A stretch of 12,139 bases of DNA from a virus. Taxonomy: Duplodnaviria > Heunggongvirae > Uroviricota > Caudoviricetes. The stretch lies in the IMG/VR virus record IMGVR_UViG_2541047682_000010; one strand, given 5' to 3'. Position numbers and translations under genes: made by a program. Position 1 is the first letter of the stretch. Every line of letters begins with the position of its first letter. Below the pieces are notes generated by a model. It did not search any database. It had not been told where the DNA came from and saw only the letters and a program-made list of their open reading frames with translations. Below are positions 1,567 to 12,139 of this stretch, piece after piece.

Positions 1567-4500
1567 ATGGGTAAAGGCAGCAGTAAGGGGCATACCCCGC
1601 GCGAAGCGAAGGACAACCTGAAATCCACGCAGTTACTGAGTGTGATCGATGCCATCAGCGAAGGACCGATAGAAGGTCCGGTGGATGGATTAAAAAGCGT
1701 GCTGCTGAACAGTACGCCGGTGCTGGACAGTGAAGGGAATACCAACATCGCCGGTGTCACGGTGGTGTTCCGGGCAGGTGAGCAGGAGCAGACACCGCCG
1801 GAGGGATTTGAATCCTCCGGATCCGAGACGGTGCTGGGTACGGAAGTGAAATATGACACGCCGATCACCCGCACCATCACGTCGGCAAACATCGACCGTC
1901 TGCGCTTTACCTTCGGTGTGCAGGCACTGGTGGAAACCACCTCAAAGGGGGACAGGAATCCATCGGAAGTCCGCCTGCTGGTTCAGATACAACGTAACGG
2001 TGGCTGGGTGACGGAAAAAGACATCACCATTAAGGGCAAAACCACGTCGCAGTATCTGGCCTCGGTGGTGGTGGATAACCTGCCGCCGCGCCCGTTTAAT
2101 ATCCGGATGCGCAGGATGACGCCGGACAGCACCACAGACCAGCTGCAGAACAAAACGCTCTGGTCGTCATACACCGAAATCATCGATGTGAAACAGTGCT
2201 ACCCGAACACGGCACTGGTCGGCGTGCAGGTGGACTCGGAACAGTTCGGCAGCCAGCAGGTGAGTCGTAATTATCATCTTCGCGGGCGCATTCTGCAGGT
2301 GCCGTCGAACTATAACCCGCAGAGGCGGCAATACAGCGGTATCTGGGACGGAACGTTTAAACCGGCATACAGCAACAACATGGCATGGTGTCTGTGGGAT
2401 ATGCTGACCCATCCGCGCTACGGCATGGGGAAACGTCTTGGTGCGGCGGATGTGGACAAATGGGCGCTGTATGTCATCGGACAGTATTGCGACCAGTCGG
2501 TGCCGGATGGTTTTGGTGGCACGGAGCCGCGCATCACCTGTAATGCGTACCTGACCACACAGCGCAAGGCGTGGGATGTGCTCAGTGATTTCTGCTCGGC
2601 GATGCGCTGTATGCCGGTATGGAACGGGCAGACGCTGACGTTCGTGCAGGACCGACCGTCGGATAAGGTGTGGACCTATAACCGCAGTAATGTGGTGATG
2701 CCGGATGATGGCGCGCCGTTCCGCTACAGCTTCAGCGCCCTGAAGGACCGCCATAATGCCGTTGAGGTGAACTGGATTGACCCGGATAACGGCTGGGAGA
2801 CGGCGACAGAGCTTGTTGAAGATACGCAGGCCATTCTCCGTTACGGTCGTAACGTCACGAAGATGGATGCCTTTGGCTGTACCAGTCGGGGGCAGGCACA
2901 CCGCGCCGGGCTGTGGCTGATTAAAACGGAGCTGCTGGAAACGCAGACCGTGGACTTCAGCGTGGGTGCTGAAGGGCTTCGCCATGTACCGGGCGATGTC
3001 ATTGAAATCTGCGATGATGACTATGCCGGTATCAGCACCGGCGGGCGAGTGCTGGCGGTGAACAGCCAGACCCGGACGCTGACGCTCGACCGTGAAATCA
3101 CGCTGCCATCCTCCGGTACCACGCTGATAAGCCTGGTTGACGGAAGTGGCAATCCGGTCAGCGTGGAGGTTCAGTCCGTCACCGACGGCGTGAAGGTAAA
3201 AGTGAGCCGTGTTCCTGACGGTGTTGCTGAATACAGCGTATGGGGGCTGAAGCTGCCGACGCTGCGCCAGCGACTGTTCCGCTGCGTGAGTATCCGTGAG
3301 AACGACGACGGCACGTATGCCATCACCGCCGTGCAGCATGTGCCGGAAAAAGAGGCCATCGTGGATAACGGAGCGCACTTTGACGGCGACCAGAGCGGCA
3401 CGGTGAATGGTGTCACGCCGCCAGCGGTGCAGCACCTGACCGCCGAAGTCACCGCAGACAGCGGGGAATATCAGGTGCTGGCGCGCTGGGACACGCCGAA
3501 GGTGGTGAAGGGCGTGAGCTTCCTGCTCCGTCTGACCGTAACAGCGGATGACGGCAGTGAGCGGCTGGTCAGCACGGCCCGGACGGCGGAAACCACTTAC
3601 CGCTTCAGGCAGCTGGCGCTGGGGCGTTACACGCTGACGGTCCGGGCGGTAAATGCCCGGGGACAGCAGGGCGATCCGGCGTCGGTATCGTTCCGGATTG
3701 CCGCACCGGCAGCGCCGTCTCGGATTGAGCTGACACCGGGCTATTTTCAGATAACCGCCACGCCACATCTTGCGGTTTATGACCCGACGGTACAGTTTGA
3801 GTTCTGGTTCTCGGAAAAACGGATTGCGGATATCAGGCAGGTTGAAACCACAGCCCGCTATCTTGGCACGGCGCTGTACTGGATAGCTGCCAGTATCAAT
3901 ATCAGGCCGGGCCATGATTATTATTTTTACGTTCGCAGTGTGAACACCGTTGGCAAATCGGCATTCGTGGAGGCTGTTGGTCGGGCGAGCGATGATGCGG
4001 AAGGTTACCTGGATTTTTTCAAAGGCCAGATAACCGAATCCCATCTTGGCAAGGAGCTGCTGGAAAAAGTCGAGCTGACGGAGGATAACGCCAGCAAACT
4101 GGAGGAGTTTTCGAAAGAGTGGAAGGACGCCAGTGATAAGTGGAATGCCATGTGGGGCGTCAAAATTGAGCAGACCAAAGACGGCAAACATTATGTCGCG
4201 GGTATTGGCCTCAGCATGGAGGACACGGAGGAAGGCAAACTGAGCCAGTTCCTGGTTGCCGCTAACCGTATCGCGTTTATTGATCCGTCTAATGGCAACA
4301 CAAGACCAATGTTTGTTGGTCAGGGCGATCAGATATTCATGAACGACGTGTTCCTGAAACGCCTGACGGCTCCGACCATTACCAGCGGCGGTAATCCTCC
4401 GGCATTTTCCCTGACACCGGATGGGCGGCTGACGGCGAAAAATGCCGATATCAGCGGTAACGTGAATGCGAACTCCGGGACGCTCAACAACGTCACGATT

Positions 4501-4962
4501 AACGAGAACTGTCGGGTTCTGGGAAAACTGTCCGCGAACCAGATTGAAGGCGATCTCGTTAAAACAGTGGGCAAAGCTTTCCCCCGGGACTCCCGTGCAC
4601 CGGAACGGTGGCCATCAGGGACCATTACCGTCAGGGTTTATGACGATCAGCCGTTTGACCGGCAGATTGTTATTCCTGCGGTGGCATTCAGCGGCGCTAA
4701 ACATGAGAGAGAGCATACTGATATTTACTCCTCATGCCGTCTGATAGTGCGGAAAAACGGTGCTGAAATTTATAACCGTACCGCGCTGGATAATACGCTG
4801 ATTTACAGTGGCGTTATTGATATGCCTGCCGGTCACGGTCACATGACGCTGGAGTTTTCGGTGTCAGCATGGCTGGTAAATGACTGGTATCCCACAGCAA
4901 GTATCAGCGATTTGCTGGTTGTGGTGATGAAGAAAGCCACCGCAGGCATCAGTATCAGCTGA
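1567..4962 (+). CDS. J: Central tail fibre / host specificity protein J (1131 aa)
   Basis: Single long ORF with GGAG 8 nt upstream of the ATG. The N-terminus [54 protein letters not shown] matches my recollection of lambda gpJ, and the length is close to lambda J (1132 aa). Confidence 0.95.
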
Positions 4963-5029: not shown

Positions 5030-5629
5030 ATGCGTAAAGTTTGTGCAGCCATTTTGTCCGCAGCCATTTGTCTGGCCGTATCCGGTGCGCCTGCATGGGC
5101 GTCTGAACATCAGTCCACGCTGAGCGCGGGGTATCTTCATGCCTCGACGAACGTCCCCGGCAGTGATGATCTGAACGGGATTAACGTGAAATACCGTTAT
5201 GAGTTTACGGACACACTGGGGCTGGTGACGTCATTCAGCTATGCAGGAGACAAGAATCGCCAGCTGACCCGTTACAGCGATACCCGCTGGCATGAAGATT
5301 CCGTTCGTAACCGCTGGTTCAGCGTAATGGCGGGGCCGTCTGTGCGCGTGAATGAATGGTTCAGCGCGTATGCGATGGCGGGTGTGGCTTACAGCCGTGT
5401 GTCGACTTTCTCCGGGGATTATCTTCGCGTAACTGACAACAAGGGGAAAAAGCACGATGTGCTGACCGGAAGTGATGACGGTCGCCACAGCAACACGTCT
5501 CTGGCGTGGGGGGCTGGCGTGCAGTTTAACCCGACCGAATCCGTGGCCATTGATATTGCTTATGAAGGCTCCGGCAGTGGCGACTGGCGCACTGACGGTT
5601 TCATCGTGGGTGTCGGTTATAAGTTCTGA
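5030..5629 (+). CDS. lom: Lom, Ail/Lom-family outer-membrane beta-barrel protein (lysogenic-conversion moron)
   Basis: 199-aa ORF with an N-terminal signal peptide (MRKVCAAILSAAICLAVSGAPAWA) and a C-terminal aromatic residue (ends GVGYKF), typical of OM beta-barrels. It sits after J as in lambda, with GAGAGG 6 nt upstream of the ATG. Confidence 0.9.
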   Translation: MRKVCAAILSAAICLAVSGAPAWASEHQSTLSAGYLHASTNVPGSDDLNGINVKYRYEFTDTLGLVTSFSYAGDKNRQLTRYSDTRWHEDSVRNRWFSVMAGPSVRVNEWFSAYAMAGVAYSRVSTFSGDYLRVTDNKGKKHDVLTGSDDGRHSNTSLAWGAGVQFNPTESVAIDIAYEGSGSGDWRTDGFIVGVGYKF

Positions 5630-5655: not shown

Positions 5656-5682
5656 AGCCCGCCGGTTCAGGCGGGCTTTTTT
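5656..5682 (+). terminator. Rho-independent terminator after lom (8-bp stem AGCCCGCC/GGCGGGCT, loop GGTTCA, then TTTTTT)
   Basis: Perfect hairpin and T6 tract read from the sequence, 27 nt after the lom stop. Confidence 0.7.
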
Positions 5683-6242
5683 GTGGAGTGGATATGGCAG
5701 CAGTAAAAATCTCAGGTGTGCTGAAAGATGGTGCGGGAAAACCAATACAGAACTGCACTATTCAACTGAAGGCAAAGCGTAACAGCACCACGGTACTGGT
5801 GAACACGGTGGCCTCTGAAAATCCGGATGAAGCCGGGCGTTACAGCATGGATGTTGAGTATGGTCAGTACAGCGTCACCCTGCTGGTTGAAGGTTTTCCG
5901 CCTTCACATGCCGGGACCATTACCGTCTATGAAGGTTCCAGACCAGGTACGCTGAATGATTTTCTCGGTGCCATGACGGAAGATGATGTCATGCCGGAGG
6001 CATTGCGTCGTTTTGAGGCAATGGTGGAAGAAGCGGCACGCAACGCCGAAGCCGCCTCTCAGAGCGCAGCAGCGGCAAAGAAATCCGAAACTGCAGCGGC
6101 ATCATCGAAGAACGCGGCGAAAACCTCAGAAACAAATGCAGCTAACAGCGCACAGGCGGCAGCGTCCTCGCAGACTGCATCGGCAAACTCCGCGACAGCA
6201 GCCAAAAAATCAGAAACCAACGCGAAAAATAGCGAGACAGCC

Positions 6243-6382
6243 GCAAAGACGAGCGAAACCAACGCAAAGTCCAGCCAGACGGCAGCGAAAACAAGCGAAA
6301 CGAATGCCAAAGCCAGTGAAACTGCGGCAAAAAACAGCCAGGTTGCAGCAGCCCAAAGCGAGAGCGCGGCAGCCGGTTCTGC
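6243..6382 (+). repeat. Direct repeat copy 1 (about 140 bp) inside the stf shaft coding region
   Basis: Near-identical to 6432-6571, offset 189 bp (63 codons). Encodes AKTSETNAKSSQTAAKTSETNAKASETAAKNSQ.AAAQSESAAAGS. Confidence 0.75.
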
Positions 6383-6431
6383 GACTTCAGCAGCTGGATC
6401 AGCAACTGCTGCGGCTAACAGCCAGAAAGCT

Positions 6432-6571
6432 GCGAAGACGAGTGAAACTAACGCAAAGTCCAGCCAGACGGCAGCGAAGACCAGCGAAACGAATGCCAAA
6501 GCCAGCGAAACTGCGGCGAAAAACAGTCAGGATGCAGCAGCCCAAAGCGAGAGTGCTGCAGCTGGTTCTGC
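6432..6571 (+). repeat. Direct repeat copy 2 (about 140 bp) inside the stf shaft coding region
   Basis: Near-identical to 6243-6382; same reading frame and same peptide repeat. Confidence 0.75.
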
Positions 6572-7227
6572 AAGCGCGGCGGCTGCTTCTGCCACTGCAT
6601 CAGCCAACAGTCAAAAAGCAGCAAAAACCAGTGAAACCAATGCAAAGACAAGCGAGACTGCAGCGGCGAACTCGGCGAAAGCATCCGCTGCAAGCCAGAC
6701 CGCTGCAAAAGCAAGTGAAGACGCAGCCAGAGAGTATGCAAGCCAGGCAGCAGATCCGTATAAATATGTCTTACAGCCGCTGCCTGATGTGTGGATACCG
6801 TTTAACGATTCACTGGATATGATTACGGGCTTTTTGCCATCATATAAAAAGATTGTTATTGGTGACGACGAAATAACGATGCCTGGCGACAAGATTGTTA
6901 AGTTTAAACGTGCATCGAAAGCAACCTATATTAACAAATCTGGTGTGCTGACAGAGGCTGCCATTGATGAGCCACGATTTGAACGTGATGGCCTGCTTAT
7001 TGAGGGGCAAAGAACTAATCTTCTGCTTAATTCAACAAATCCATCTAAATGGAATAAGTCAGGCAATCTGGAACTCACAGAAATATCCACGGATTCTTTT
7101 AATTTTACTTATGGGAGATTTACTGTAAAAGATACTCTTATTGGTCAGACAAGTGCTATTAATATCGTAACGATTTCTGGCAGTAAAGGGTTTGATGTCA
7201 CAGGTGATGAAAAATATGTGACCATTT

Positions 7228-7232
7228 CATGC
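7228..7232. repeat. IS2 target-site duplication, left copy (CATGC)
   Basis: Identical 5-mer immediately flanks both IS2 termini. IS2 is known to make 5-bp duplications. Confidence 0.85.
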
Positions 7233-7243
7233 TGGATTTGCCC

Positions 7244-8149
7244 CTATATTTCCAGACACCTGTTATCACTTAACCCATTACTGGCTTGCTGCCGCAGATA
7301 TTCCCGTGGCGAGCGATAACCCAGTGCACTATGCGGATGCCATTCGTTATAATGCTCGAACGCCTCTGCAAGGTTCTTTGCTGCCGTTAACCCGTCTGGT
7401 TTGGGCATGACACTGATGTAGTCACGCTTTATCGTTTTCACGAAGCTCTCTGCTATGCCGTTACTCTCCGGACTCCGCACCGCCGTGCTCTTCGGTTCAA
7501 GCCCCAACATCCGGGCAAACTGCCGTGTTTCATTAGCCCGGTAGCATGAACCATTATCCGTCAGCCACTCTACTGGAGACGCCGGAAGCTCGTTGCCGAA
7601 GCGGCGTTCCACCGCTCCCAGCATGACGTCCTGTACTGTTTCACTGTTGAAGCCGCCCGTAGTGACCGCCCAGTGCAGTGCCTCACGGTCACAGCAGTCC
7701 AGCGCGAACGTGACTCGCAGTTTTTCTCCGTTATCACAGCGGAACTCGAACCCGTCAGAGCACCATCGCTGATTACTTTCTTTCACAGCCACTCTGCCTG
7801 TATGTGCCCGTTTCGATGGCGGTACAGCAGGTTTTCGCTCAAGCAACAGCGCATTCTGGCGCATGATCCGGTAAACACGTTTGGCATTGATCGCAGGCAT
7901 ACCATCAAGTTCTGCCTGTCTGCGAAGCAGCGCCCATACCCGACGATAACCATACGTGGGCAGCTCTCCGATAACATGGTGTATACGGAGAAGCACATCC
8001 GTATCATCAGTGTGACGACTGCGGCGGCCATCCATCCAGTCATCGGTTCGTCTGAGAATGACGTGCAACTGCGCACGCGACACCCGGAGACAACGGCTGA
8101 CTAAGCTTACTCCCCATCCCCGGGCAATAAGGGCGCGTGCGCTATCCAC
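7244..8149 (-). CDS. insD: IS2 transposase OrfB (InsD; DDE integrase-like catalytic domain), 301 aa
   Basis: Translation [23 protein letters not shown]...[12 protein letters not shown] is recognised as IS2 InsD. It overlaps insC by 43 nt, where an A6G slippery run (CAAAAAAG on the - strand, about 8149-8156) is the known site of programmed -1 frameshifting that produces the OrfAB transposase. Confidence 0.9.
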
Positions 8150-8472
8150 TTTTTTGCCCGTCCATATTCAACGGCTTCTTTGAGGAGTTCATTTTCCATC
8201 GTTTTCTTGCCGAGCAGGCGCTGGAGTTCTTTAATCTGCTTCATGGCGGCAGCAAGTTCAGAGGCAGGAACAACCTGTTCTCCGGCGGCGACAGCAGTAA
8301 GACTTCCTTCCTGGTATTGCTTACGCCAGAGAAATAACTGGCTGGCTGCCACACCGTGTTGCCGGGCAACGAGGGAGACCGTCATCCCTGGTTCAAAGCT
8401 CTGCTGAACAATTGCGATCTTTTCCTGTGTGGTACGCCGTCTGCGTTTCTCCGGTCCTAAGACATCAATCAT
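8107..8472 (-). CDS. insC: IS2 OrfA (InsC; helix-turn-helix regulator and transposase N-terminal part), 121 aa
   Basis: Translation [56 protein letters not shown]... is recognised as IS2 InsC. The ORF track gives an extended 136-aa frame from 8517; the canonical start is the internal Met. Confidence 0.9.
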
Positions 8473-8563
8473 CTGCTCTCCAATGACTAGTCTAAAAACT
8501 AGTATTAAGACTATCACTTAAATAAGTGATATTGGTTGTCTGGAGATTCAGGGGGCCAGTCTA

Positions 8564-8568
8564 CATGC
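8564..8568. repeat. IS2 target-site duplication, right copy (CATGC)
   Basis: Identical to 7228-7232. Confidence 0.85.
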
Positions 8569-9407
8569 CGTGTAAGAAGTGATGTTGAAAATATAAGGTG
8601 TCGTTTAAGATTTGAACACCATGATGGTTATACTTACACTTTTTTGGGAGATGCTTACCTCAATTTATCAACACTTGTAATTGATAAAACTGGTACTGCT
8701 GCAGACCGTATTATTGCAAAGGCTGTAAAAGATGAGGTTACTGGTTGGATTTTCTATCAGGCTACAATTAATGCACTAGATACAGAGAGCATGATTGGTG
8801 CGATGGTTCAATACGCTCCTGTAAAAGGTTCAGGTACAGCATCTGGAGACTATCTGGATATCGCAACTCCACAAGTGGAAGGTGGATCAAGTGCTTCGTC
8901 ATTTATTGTAACTGATATAACTGCAAGCACTCGCGCAAGCGATATGGTGACAGTCCCAATCAAGAATAACCTTTATAATCTTCCTTTTACGGTTCTTTGT
9001 GAGGTACATAAGAACTGGTATAAAACGCCAAATGCAGCACCGCGTGTTTTTGATACCGGCGGTCATCAAACCGGAGCGGCTATTATTCTTGGCTTCGGTC
9101 GTTCAACAGATTACGACGGATTTCCTTATTGTGATATAGGTTTGGCTAACAGACGGGTAAACGAAAACGCATCGCTTGAAAAAATGGTTATGGGGATGCG
9201 TGTAAAGTCAGATCAGTCTACGTGCTCAGTAAGTAACGGGCGTATATCCAGCGAAAAGAAAGCCACATGGTCCTATATTCAGAACTCCGCAATTATCCGT
9301 ATTGGAGGCCAGACTACAGCCGGGTTGCGTCATTTATTTGGTCATGTCAGGAATTTCAGAATATGGCACAAGGCATTGACTGATGCTCAGATGGGGGAGT
9401 CAATCTA

Positions 9408-9689
9408 ATGAAAGATTTAACACTCAAATTTGCAGACAGGGCCGACTTTTCGGCCTTTATGGATAGCATTGGCTATTATGATGACGAGTCGATGCAGGAT
9501 GATATTCTTATTGACGTGATAGGTAACGTGTACAAAGAAACCGGAGAACTGACTGAAGATGGCGAACCGGTATGTGTTAAGGAAGATGGATATTTTGTAA
9601 ACGTGCGCATCATTAATGATGCAAAAAAATCGTTAATATTCGATGAATACGCGGTTGTAGTTGAACATCAACTTCGTGGCTGGATGTGA
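9408..9689 (+). CDS. Hypothetical small acidic protein (93 aa), translationally coupled to stf
   Basis: The ATG overlaps the stf stop (TAATG). GGGGAG lies 9 nt upstream. Low G+C like the distal stf domain. Asp/Glu-rich. No family recognised. Confidence 0.6.
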   Translation: MKDLTLKFADRADFSAFMDSIGYYDDESMQDDILIDVIGNVYKETGELTEDGEPVCVKEDGYFVNVRIINDAKKSLIFDEYAVVVEHQLRGWM

Positions 9690-9698
9690 GGGAGACAA

Positions 9699-10403
9699 AT
9701 GGCTACATCGACAGTAATTCCAGGAGACATCACCACGTTAAAGGGAGATGTCAGTAAAGCCAAGGAAGATATTTCCTCAATTAACGGAAAAGTATCAACG
9801 CTTCAGGCTGATATGACCAGTGCAAAGCAGGATATCAGCACCAGATACACAAAAACTGAAGTTGATAATAAGCTGAAAAACAAACTGGAAGTGAACGCTC
9901 TGGAAAGCGGTCGTTATGGTGGAGATTTTTACCCGTTGACTGGCCGTGAAGCGTTTTATTTGTGGGGATTGGGCACGACTACAGCGGCGGCAAACCTTTA
10001 TCTTAATCCTGACCCCGCAATTTCGTCTGTGCTGCGGTCAACATCGTCTATCCGCTATAAACATTCAGTAGAGACAATAGATTCAGAGCACGCCGATCTC
10101 ATTTTCAGGATGCGCCCTGTGTGGTACAGGTCACAATGCGAAAATGACAGGCGTGACTGGGGATTCTACGGATTGATTGCCGAGGAAGTAGGAGAAATTG
10201 CCCCTCAGTTTGTACACTGGCGACCAGCTAACGAAGATGATGCACCGGAAGCTATTTCCAGCAATGGCCTTGTTGCCGAAGGTGTAATGTACGAACGTCT
10301 GGTTGTTCCACTGATTCACCATATCCAGAAGCTGACTGAAAGAGTTGATGAACTTGAGTCAGAATTAAAGTTGTTATCCGTTTCCCGAAGCGATATCGGA
10401 TAA
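9699..10403 (+). CDS. Tail-fibre-related protein with a coiled-coil N-terminus and a C-terminal peptidase-S74-like intramolecular-chaperone domain (234 aa)
   Basis: GGGAG lies 6 nt before the ATG. The C-terminal 120 residues carry the characteristic S74 pattern: SSIRYKHSVETID (compare SDxRxKxNI), then RPVWYR, then GLIAEEVGEIAPQFV, then MYERLVVPLIHHIQKLTERVDELESEL. The N-terminus has heptad-like repeats (DITTLKGDVSKAKEDISSINGKVSTLQADMTSAKQDIS). Confidence 0.75.
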   Translation: MATSTVIPGDITTLKGDVSKAKEDISSINGKVSTLQADMTSAKQDISTRYTKTEVDNKLKNKLEVNALESGRYGGDFYPLTGREAFYLWGLGTTTAAANLYLNPDPAISSVLRSTSSIRYKHSVETIDSEHADLIFRMRPVWYRSQCENDRRDWGFYGLIAEEVGEIAPQFVHWRPANEDDAPEAISSNGLVAEGVMYERLVVPLIHHIQKLTERVDELESELKLLSVSRSDIG

Positions 10404-10413
10404 AGGAGGAGTA

Positions 10414-10707
10414 ATGGATATAACACCTTTCCTTCATGCGCTTTGTGCTGTGGCTGCGCAGCTACTGATTGGTCTTTTTACCGGGAACTGGGCTTACGGG
10501 GCGATAGCTGGTTGTACGTTCTTCATTGCGCGTGAACACACCCAGGCAGAATATCGCTGGATTGAAATGTTCGGGCATGGCAAGCGAATGAATATGCCGT
10601 GGTGGGGCGGTTTTGATCCGCGCGCGTGGGATGTGGCAAGCCTGATGGATTTTGCTGTGCCGGTGGTGGCGTGTCTGCTGGTCTGGCTGTTGGTTAATCG
10701 TGGGTGA
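10414..10707 (+). CDS. Hypothetical small membrane protein (97 aa, two to three predicted transmembrane segments)
   Basis: Strong RBS AAGGAGG 7 nt before the ATG. Hydrophobic stretches FLHALCAVAAQLLIGLF, AYGAIAGCTFFIA and FAVPVVACLLVWLLV. G+C is similar to the phage backbone, not the low-GC cassette. Confidence 0.55.
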   Translation: MDITPFLHALCAVAAQLLIGLFTGNWAYGAIAGCTFFIAREHTQAEYRWIEMFGHGKRMNMPWWGGFDPRAWDVASLMDFAVPVVACLLVWLLVNRG

Positions 10708-10717
10708 AAAAAGGTGA

Positions 10718-10837
10718 GCTGTATATGCAACGGAGGAAGAAACCTCGTTGCTGGAAGCCTGGAAGAAGTATCGGGTGTTGCTGAACCGTGTTGATACGTC
10801 AACTGCACAGGATATTGAATGGCCAGCACTGCCGTAG
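10718..10837 (+). pseudogene. tfa: 3' remnant (39 codons) of the tail fibre assembly gene tfa
   Basis: The frame opens right after a TGA at 10715-10717 and reads [39 protein letters not shown]-stop. This matches the conserved C-terminus of lambda-type Tfa as I recall it (..[30 protein letters not shown]..). There is no start codon and no N-terminal Tfa domain. Confidence 0.7.
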
Positions 10838-10934: not shown

Positions 10935-11525
10935 TTATATGTCAGGTGTCTGAAGTTTTGCTTTGGCTCTTAAAATGGTTTGCCGCGAGGTTTTGAATTC
11001 CCGGGCAATGGCACTTATACTTACACCTGACTTAATTCGTTCGAATACCACCTGTTTCTGTTCTTCATTTAACACAGGTGGTCGACCAAAACGTTTCCCT
11101 GCGCCCCGGGCTCTTACTATCCCGGAATGAGTGCGTTCAAGTAAAAGGTCTCGTTCAAATTCAGCGACTGCTGAAATTACTTGCATCATCATTTTCCCTG
11201 TTGGACTGGTCAGGTCAATGCCCCCCAATGCTAAGCAATGCACTCTGATACCTGTTTCGGTCAGTTGTTCCACTGTTTTCCTGATATCCATTGCATTACA
11301 ACCAAGGCGATCCAGTTTTGTCACAATCAATTGATCACCACATTTCAGACGAGCAAGCAACCGGTTAAAACCAGGACGCTCACTGGTTGCTGCTGAGCCG
11401 CTAATGTGTTCTTCGATTATTTGCTGAGGTTTGATTTTAAAACCTGCACTTTCGATTTCCCGGCGTTGATTTTCGGTGGTCTGATCCAGCGTTGATATCC
11501 GACAGTAAGCAAAAATTCGAGACAT
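10935..11525 (-). CDS. pin: Serine recombinase (resolvase/invertase family, PinR/PinQ-like), 196 aa
   Basis: N-terminal catalytic motif YCRISTLDQ with the nucleophilic Ser, and a C-terminal helix-turn-helix ([20 protein letters not shown]). The sequence matches my recollection of the E. coli prophage PinR/PinQ proteins. Position next to tfa is as in Rac and Qin. Confidence 0.9.
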
Positions 11526-11905: not shown

Positions 11906-12139
11906 TTACACTTTACCATTTAAATTTTGGTTGTCTTTAAGAACTGATATCGCTGTTTGTAATAATTCTTTGTTATCCAGCCATGACTTTTTCTTTATGT
12001 TTCCTTCAATGTAATCAAGCAATGTTCTGGTATTGATAGGTCTTCCCTGTTTTGCTACTTCCACGACAGCATCTCCCAGGATAATTCTGACTTCAGGAAG
12101 CTGCGCAGGGAACCACTTTAGGGTGTCTTTTGATTTCAT
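11906..12139 (-). CDS. Small prophage protein (77 aa if the ATG at the window edge is the true start), YnaE/YdfK-like by synteny
   Basis: Complete ORF on the - strand whose ATG is the last three bases of the window. Its RBS and any upstream extension cannot be seen. The position next to pin matches pinR-ynaE and pinQ-ydfK in E. coli K-12. The synteny assignment is from memory and was not verified. Confidence 0.5.
   Translation of the reverse strand: MKSKDTLKWFPAQLPEVRIILGDAVVEVAKQGRPINTRTLLDYIEGNIKKKSWLDNKELLQTAISVLKDNQNLNGKV

Follow-up and report, generated by a model that had tools for sequence, protein, structure and literature searches.

The window (the whole 12,139-nt stretch analysed, virus record IMGVR_UViG_2541047682_000010) is the tail end of a lambdoid prophage, in which Pfam matches give the gene order tail-tip, gpJ, Ail/Lom, fibre. 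The fibre gene lies in two pieces separated by an insertion sequence.

143-1506: ORFs for tail-tip proteins
1567-4962: gpJ, with every J-specific Pfam domain present
5030-5629: Ail/Lom outer-membrane protein
5694-7232, plus strand: lambda Stf-type side tail fibre gene, 5' part with codons 1-513, assigned from PF08400 and identity to E. coli S88
5700-5978, plus strand: collar (tail-attachment) domain, residues 3-95, matching the lambda Stf N-terminal domain 9e7m/9mgh
7228-7232 and 8564-8568: left and right copies of a 5-bp target duplication, CATGC
7233-8563, minus strand: IS2 (IS3 family), 1331 bp, within the fibre gene, seen as an insertion relative to S88 and bounded by inverted terminal repeats
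8107-8517 and 7244-8149, minus strand: IS2 transposase ORFs with HTH_Tnp_1 and rve/rve_3 domains
8564-9408, plus strand: 3' part of the fibre gene, collinear with positions 7541-8385 of the S88 locus (L001)

Judged by its sequence, the interrupted gene is a lambda Stf-type side tail fibre gene of the PF08400 family. In its product the PF08400 'prophage tail fibre N-terminal' domain scores 224 bits (cutoff 26.6; E = 5.4e-67), and residues 3-95 align with the solved lambda Stf collar 9e7m at E = 7.7e-49 with 82 of 93 residues identical, as counted on the alignment. Beta-strands are predicted by AF2 over residues 4-78, and the full-length protein matches phrog_1419 end to end. The gene sits after J and lom, an order that is the same in S88 (L-K-I-J-lom-fibre), in lambda and in related phages. 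Of the characters of an Stf-type fibre we find the PF08400 collar, the J-lom-fibre position and a heptad rod directly after collar and linker; a gp37-like distal domain with a Tfa chaperone and an intact reading frame are absent. Positions 5688-7232 are 100 % identical to an intact 792-codon gene present in E. coli S88, APEC O1 and many other complete genomes, annotated as 'prophage tail fiber N-terminal domain-containing protein'. The start codon is ATG 5694 and not GTG 5688: the S88 gene is annotated from the position equivalent to 5694, and a look-up of the product found many assemblies for the ATG start and no record for the GTG start.

Two further observations concern the region upstream. 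Between lom and the start codon of the fibre gene (5656-5677, plus strand) there is a strong terminator-like hairpin of 8 pairs, 7 of them G-C, with a T run behind it. A 674-codon ORF runs antisense to gpJ (2167-4191, minus strand); stops in that frame would need sense TTA, CTA or TCA codons in J, and the ORF is most likely a codon-usage artefact and not a gene.

We identified the insertion as IS2 because of its length of 1331 bp, its inverted repeats (ends TGGATTTGCCCC... and TAGACTGGCCCCC...), the CATGC duplication, the two ORFs carrying HTH and rve domains, and the 99.8 % identity that links it to IS3-family copies annotated in many genomes. The break in the fibre gene falls behind codon 513 of its 792, and the reading frame continues into the element to a stop at 7319; 3' of the element, the comparison with S88 shows no mismatch before window position 11106. 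With its gene split in this way the fibre cannot be made, and the repeat described below is thus without present function and its length variation without phenotype in this prophage. In the complete RefSeq E. coli set no genome contains the IS2-fibre junction in one piece. Many assemblies, on the other hand, have the truncated product of 541 residues in exactly this form; for 32 index blocks among them, the longest contig carrying it is over 1 Mb in length. The prophage with this product adjoins prfC in four of the five places shown. The recurrence of the exact truncated product in many public assemblies indicates that the insertion is inherited within a lineage. The interruption does not figure in the preliminary description of this DNA.

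The rod has a G+C content of about 0.56, compared with 0.38-0.41 for the distal half of the gene (6750-7232 and 8564-9408), and a Pfam search of this distal half found no domain. Similarity to other fibres ends in or just after the rod, at 6046, 6085, 6223, 6320, 6584-6658 and 7018-7061. The scattered end points and the drop in G+C after the rod are consistent with the rod serving as a junction for the exchange of distal modules, and the gene has the appearance of a mosaic whose parts meet where the rod ends.

Downstream of the fibre, 9408-10707 contains three small genes, with products of 93 residues (phrog_1361), 234 residues and 97 residues (phrog_1443). The 234-residue product corresponds to only the C-terminal end of phrog_3299, a fibre family of 1385 residues, and contains a Peptidase_S74 chaperone domain. 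This set stands in place of the usual tfa chaperone gene and is also found in the isolated phage IdasGreatGrand; 2G7b and HannyBb have a longer middle gene, and ev207 has no middle gene. Beyond it, a truncated tail-fibre-assembly (tfa) remnant at about 10727-10837 adjoins a Pin/Gin-type DNA invertase gene (10935-11525, minus strand; Resolvase and HTH_7 domains; phrog_125). No AAACCNNGGTTT crossover core was found anywhere in the window, and remnant and invertase look like a decayed invertible-segment system comparable to pinR at the end of Rac. At the right end (11906-12139, minus strand) the invertase is followed by a ydfK/ynaE-type cold-shock gene and, in relatives, then by ynaM and dinI. 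This gene order is that of the right end of the K-12 Rac prophage (L010); the prophage of the window adjoins prfC.

A heptad rod and its tandem repeat

The segment following collar and linker is Ala/Ser/Thr-rich, and its organization at the DNA and protein level is as follows.

6021-6755, plus strand: rod, 245 residues long, with 35 heptads that keep a single register throughout; predicted to form a trimeric alpha-helical coiled coil
6243-6431, plus strand: repeat unit 1, nine heptads long (189 nt, 63 residues), its boundary set at an arbitrary phase
6432-6620, plus strand: repeat unit 2, which agrees with unit 1 at 91.4 % of its first 140 nt
6621-6665, plus strand: partial third unit, motif start only, AKTSETNAKTSETAA; array end at 6665 from Tandem Repeats Finder and alignment

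The rod reads S-x-x-x-A-x-x from MVEEAAR (6021) to ...YASQAAD (6755). Serine occupies position 1 in 32 of the 35 heptads and alanine position 5 in equally many (32/35) and position 4 in 25, with positions 2, 3, 6 and 7 being mostly E/Q/A, T, K/A and variable respectively; alanine periodicity is strongest at 7.02 residues. The preliminary description had placed a repeat-rich shaft built from AAKTSETNAK-like units at 6060-6720. The segment is real and made of such short units, the motif occurring five times, but it is slightly larger than described.

The same description reported two almost identical copies of about 140 bp lying 189 bp apart, at 6243-6382 and 6432-6571. We scanned the rod DNA (6021-6755) without bias for its best 140-nt self-match at any offset and recovered precisely these positions: the top match starts at 6243 with an offset of 189 and agrees at 128 of 140 bases (91.4 %), while the next offsets reach only 60-66 %. 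Tandem Repeats Finder gives a period of 189 with 2.3 copies over 6231-6665, 83 % matches, no indels and a score of 597, with periods of 21 and 42 nested within it, and a separate repeat search also finds the 189-nt copies at 83 %. The 140-nt stretches are thus the well-conserved 5' parts of two tandem 189-nt units, of which the 3' 49 nt are much more diverged. The term 'almost identical' accordingly means 91 % over the 5' 140 nt of each unit. Translated, the two units share 58 of 63 residues, and their codon differences comprise 22 synonymous and 5 non-synonymous changes.

One could ask whether such a match arises from low complexity, chance or assembly rather than from a true duplication, the entire rod being of low complexity with a background identity of 45-52 % at in-phase offsets and of 25 % at out-of-phase ones. 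With the 21-nt heptad blocks shuffled, the best self-match averaged 64.5 % (sd 2.4, maximum 71.4 % in 200 shuffles), and with codons shuffled 51 % (maximum 56 %). The 189-nt offset match therefore lies about 11 sd above the heptad-block shuffles, so that the self-alignment proposed as a check returns a repeat far above background (91.4 % against at most 71 %). Furthermore, the two-unit structure is shared by 48 independent loci as well as by complete genomes and isolated phages. Shuffle controls and loci together refute a chance or artefactual origin, which we regard as having practically no probability.

The rod is most likely a three-stranded alpha-helical coiled coil joining the tail collar to the distal receptor-binding part. 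Ur-lambda gpStf is a trimeric fibre with a collar at residues 1-91, a linker at 92-101 and a proximal coiled-coil domain at 102-393 (PMC12617516). It is to this proximal trimeric coiled coil that the repeat region corresponds, in agreement with its earlier designation as a fibre shaft (PMC12617516). We infer the trimeric helical structure of the window's own rod by homology with Ur-lambda gpStf, the solved Stf structure covering residues 1-94 only (9e7m/9mgh). AF2 modelling of residues 1-400 as a monomer predicted a beta-rich N-domain and helices at 100-228 and 247-351 (mean pLDDT 57.5, pTM 0.25); this low-confidence model folds the rod back on itself, with a break at residues 229-246 in Gly-containing heptads.

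Alternatively the Ala/Ser/Thr segment may be a flexible or disordered linker or another fibrous fold, with the number of units setting a spacer length free of any register constraint. The low AF2 confidence and the break at 229-246 point this way, as do a few relatives with length differences that are not whole heptads; serine and alanine at the periodic positions are small polar residues atypical for a coiled-coil core, which counts against the coiled-coil reading. Against a linker, the 7-residue periodicity is strict over 245 residues, and lambda orf-401 (about 38 heptads) and StfR (about 53) keep the same register. In complete genomes the indels are whole heptads, and the equivalent Ur-lambda segment is a rigid trimeric bundle by cryo-EM and cryo-ET (PMC12617516). 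Taken together, these results make the linker improbable and argue for a coiled-coil rod.

A coiled coil rises by about 0.15 nm per residue, so that one unit would add about 9 nm to a whole rod of about 36 nm. A promoter and terminator scan of the rod found none above shuffled expectation.

Other reading frames of the rod

Several long ORFs overlap the rod in other frames.

5983-6822, plus strand: spurious ORF of 279 codons in the rod's +1 frame, no Pfam match, 0-2 stops in relatives
6059-6892, minus strand: four spurious antisense ORFs of 87-146 codons (6059-6499, 6142-6405, 6448-6741 and 6611-6892)

These ORFs had been attributed to the repeats. They are present and spurious as described, but their cause is composition and not repetition: the rod DNA contains 9 % T with an AT skew of about +0.6, and long ORFs open in several frames on both strands because every stop or reverse-complemented stop needs a T on the fibre strand. 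It is conceivable that one or more of them is a real overlapping gene whose constraint the repeat reflects, given the 279 open codons of the +1 frame, the antisense ORFs of 87-146 codons and an antisense orf206b listed at the equivalent place in the lambda reference annotation. We addressed this by comparing 41 distinct orthologous rods and found that 73 % of pairwise differences fall at third positions of the fibre frame, while in relatives the number of stops in the other frames varies. A Pfam search of the other-frame and antisense rod ORFs found no match, and 9 % T by itself removes stops on both strands. The third-position bias, the variable stops and the lack of Pfam matches rule out these ORFs as genes, and an overlapping gene is extremely improbable. 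The lambda orf206b itself (NC_001416; L009 1248-1868, minus strand), annotated as a 'hypothetical protein' on the strand opposite the rod-coding part of orf-401, is probably a T-poor spurious ORF like those of the window.

Rod length and repeat age among relatives

To place the repeat among relatives, we measured rod lengths between common flanking motifs, with the following outcome.

140 residues, 20 heptads: 23 viral-contig loci
182 residues, 26 heptads, exactly one unit fewer: six protein clusters, one fetched locus and phage IdasGreatGrand
217 residues, 31 heptads: one complete genome and one protein cluster
231 residues, 33 heptads: two protein clusters
238 residues, 34 heptads: one protein cluster, two fetched complete genomes, and further complete genomes in which the match spans the corresponding 819 nt
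245 residues, 35 heptads: 47 protein clusters and 48 fetched loci

The 182-residue rod also appears as single-piece matches in five complete E. coli records, representing four distinct genomes; in E. coli CB209 (L099) it belongs to an intact 728-codon fibre gene. The comparison of copy number suggested earlier thus yields alleles lacking exactly one unit in IdasGreatGrand, in at least four complete E. coli genomes and in six clusters. Five singleton protein clusters have rods off heptad multiples (241, 233, 215, 204 and 177 residues), either as tolerated register breaks or as draft-assembly errors. The region is covered in 1,039 E. coli records. Among the 40 best matches of complete E. coli genomes to a synthetic three-unit query we found no three-unit allele; all were two-piece matches of 841 nt (two units) except one of 820 nt and one of 840 nt for query positions 1-1029, and three-unit alleles of lower identity may rank below these.

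In E. coli EFF60 (NZ_CP086678.1, L096) the 31-heptad fibre gene is annotated as several fragments, with one minus-strand 'hypothetical protein' inside the rod, and IS200 and IS3-family elements lie nearby, making it another case of decay and mis-annotation.

Close relatives are the fibres of IdasGreatGrand (XNS38299.1, 731 aa), 2G7b, HannyBb, ev207 and PhiR46_1, which match end to end with 88.6-95 % DNA identity over the aligned parts and have flanks and downstream genes as in the window. Their fibre genes are intact, in contrast to the IS2-disrupted copy of the window; IdasGreatGrand has 26 heptads and the other four have 35, as here. Ur-lambda gpStf (stf; orf-401 plus orf-314 in lambda PaPa) is similar in its J-lom-stf position, its collar (82/93 identical) and its S-x-x-x-A-x-x heptads in unbroken register after the collar. 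However, DNA similarity to lambda stops at window position 6046, just inside the rod; the lambda rod is without the 9-heptad tandem duplication, and the window's distal half is unrelated to the gp37-like distal domain of lambda and has no intact tfa downstream. K-12 Rac StfR (1120 aa) likewise combines a PF08400-type N-terminus, a heptad rod, a right-hand tfa, a pin-type invertase and ynaE/ydfK, but its rod is much longer, with 377 residues up to the first proline, its distal domain is different and its tfaR is intact.

A weak low-complexity match (E about 1e-3) links the rod to similar Ser/Ala/Lys/Glu heptads in the N-terminal part (residues 130-172) of DpK2, the depolymerase of Klebsiella phage RAD2 (PDB 7LZJ), a tailspike with a beta-helix that is otherwise unrelated. 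The DpK2 trimer has an extended N-terminal triple-helical bundle of low resolution, and only residues 191-906 were built (PDB 7LZJ).

In the wider family, sampled with the collar domain and taken as representatives at 50 % identity, rods are between about 60 and 380 residues long. Strong internal repeats occur in 13 of these representatives, in every case at offsets divisible by 7 (14, 35, 42, 56, 63, 70, 84 and 140 residues), and representatives of StfR-like rod length (379 residues) have their own internal repeats at 84-residue offsets. On the evidence of these protein sequences, multi-heptad duplication is a general habit of the Stf-type fibre family.

We then considered the age of the duplication. 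In 48 two-unit loci, identity between the two units of a locus is 82-88 % over the 189 nt, while a given unit compared between loci is 92-100 % identical. Paralogues being more diverged than orthologues, the duplication predates the spread of this allele class and whole units have not been homogenised; concerted evolution over the whole unit is ruled out on the same ground. Twelve fixed differences separate unit 1 from unit 2, all in the 3' third of the unit, and the 5' 130 nt carry no fixed differences and have polymorphisms common to both units. One-unit alleles carry the unit-2 state at 12 of the 12 fixed diagnostic sites, a pattern that suits an ancestral single unit just as much as unequal crossover within the 5' parts, where the units are similar.

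Tandem repeats in surface-recognition genes, with copy number differing among strains, are characteristic of bacterial contingency loci. Tandem in-frame repeats in a host-recognition gene, with length variants among relatives, could suggest that the present repeat is such a hypermutable locus, in which frequent gain and loss of units switches fibre length or expression in the population. Near-identical units whose number differs among very close relatives are not what we observe. The units are long and diverged, 83 % identical overall with the 12 fixed differences in their 3' thirds, and differ more from each other than from their orthologues; a unit length that is a multiple of 3 would give no frameshift switching. 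The region is 100 % identical in 18 complete genomes from different hosts. These identical genomes and the recurrent exact truncated product indicate a repeat that is stable on the scale of lineages and not a contingency-type switch, which we consider very improbable.

A link between the repeat and the downstream Pin-type invertase is ruled out, the repeats being direct and not inverted and the window having no AAACCNNGGTTT core.

The best explanation, to which we assign a probability of roughly 0.85, is a proximal Stf-type rod that underwent a 9-heptad duplication in the past, with in-register recombination or slippage giving rise to the length variants. A block of nine heptads (63 residues, 189 nt) was duplicated in tandem; as the unit is a whole number of heptads, the coiled-coil register would have been kept and the rod would simply have become about 9 nm longer. 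The repetitive DNA may then have allowed unequal recombination or slippage, in frame and in register, yielding 20, 26, 31, 34 and 35 heptads between identical flanks, and the low-complexity homology of the rod may have provided the junction for joining different distal fibre modules. The preliminary proposal that in-frame repeats permit recombination-driven changes in fibre length holds in that whole-unit and whole-heptad variants exist, while we infer the mechanism (recombination or slippage), its direction and any effect of rod length on adsorption.

Significance for side tail fibres

The repeat is an ordinary feature of an already known kind, a segmental nine-heptad duplication with whole-heptad length polymorphism. 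A literature search on tandem repeats in side tail fibres returned nothing relevant. For annotation, Stf-type rods yield long false ORFs in several frames and break short-read assemblies; many database entries for the fibre protein are labelled 'partial'.

A more speculative and, in our estimation, unlikely interpretation is that rod length is an adaptive, quantised trait, in which whole-heptad steps, with the 9-heptad unit as the largest, tune the reach of the receptor-binding tip. If so, reach would match the depth of the O-antigen or capsule layer of the host, and the classes of 20, 26, 31, 34 and 35 heptads would be selected variants and not neutral ones. Isolated phages and prophages together provide a natural series of rods, from 20 to 35 heptads between identical flanks, which may be used to probe side-fibre reach against adsorption or to pick in-register junctions for chimeric fibres.
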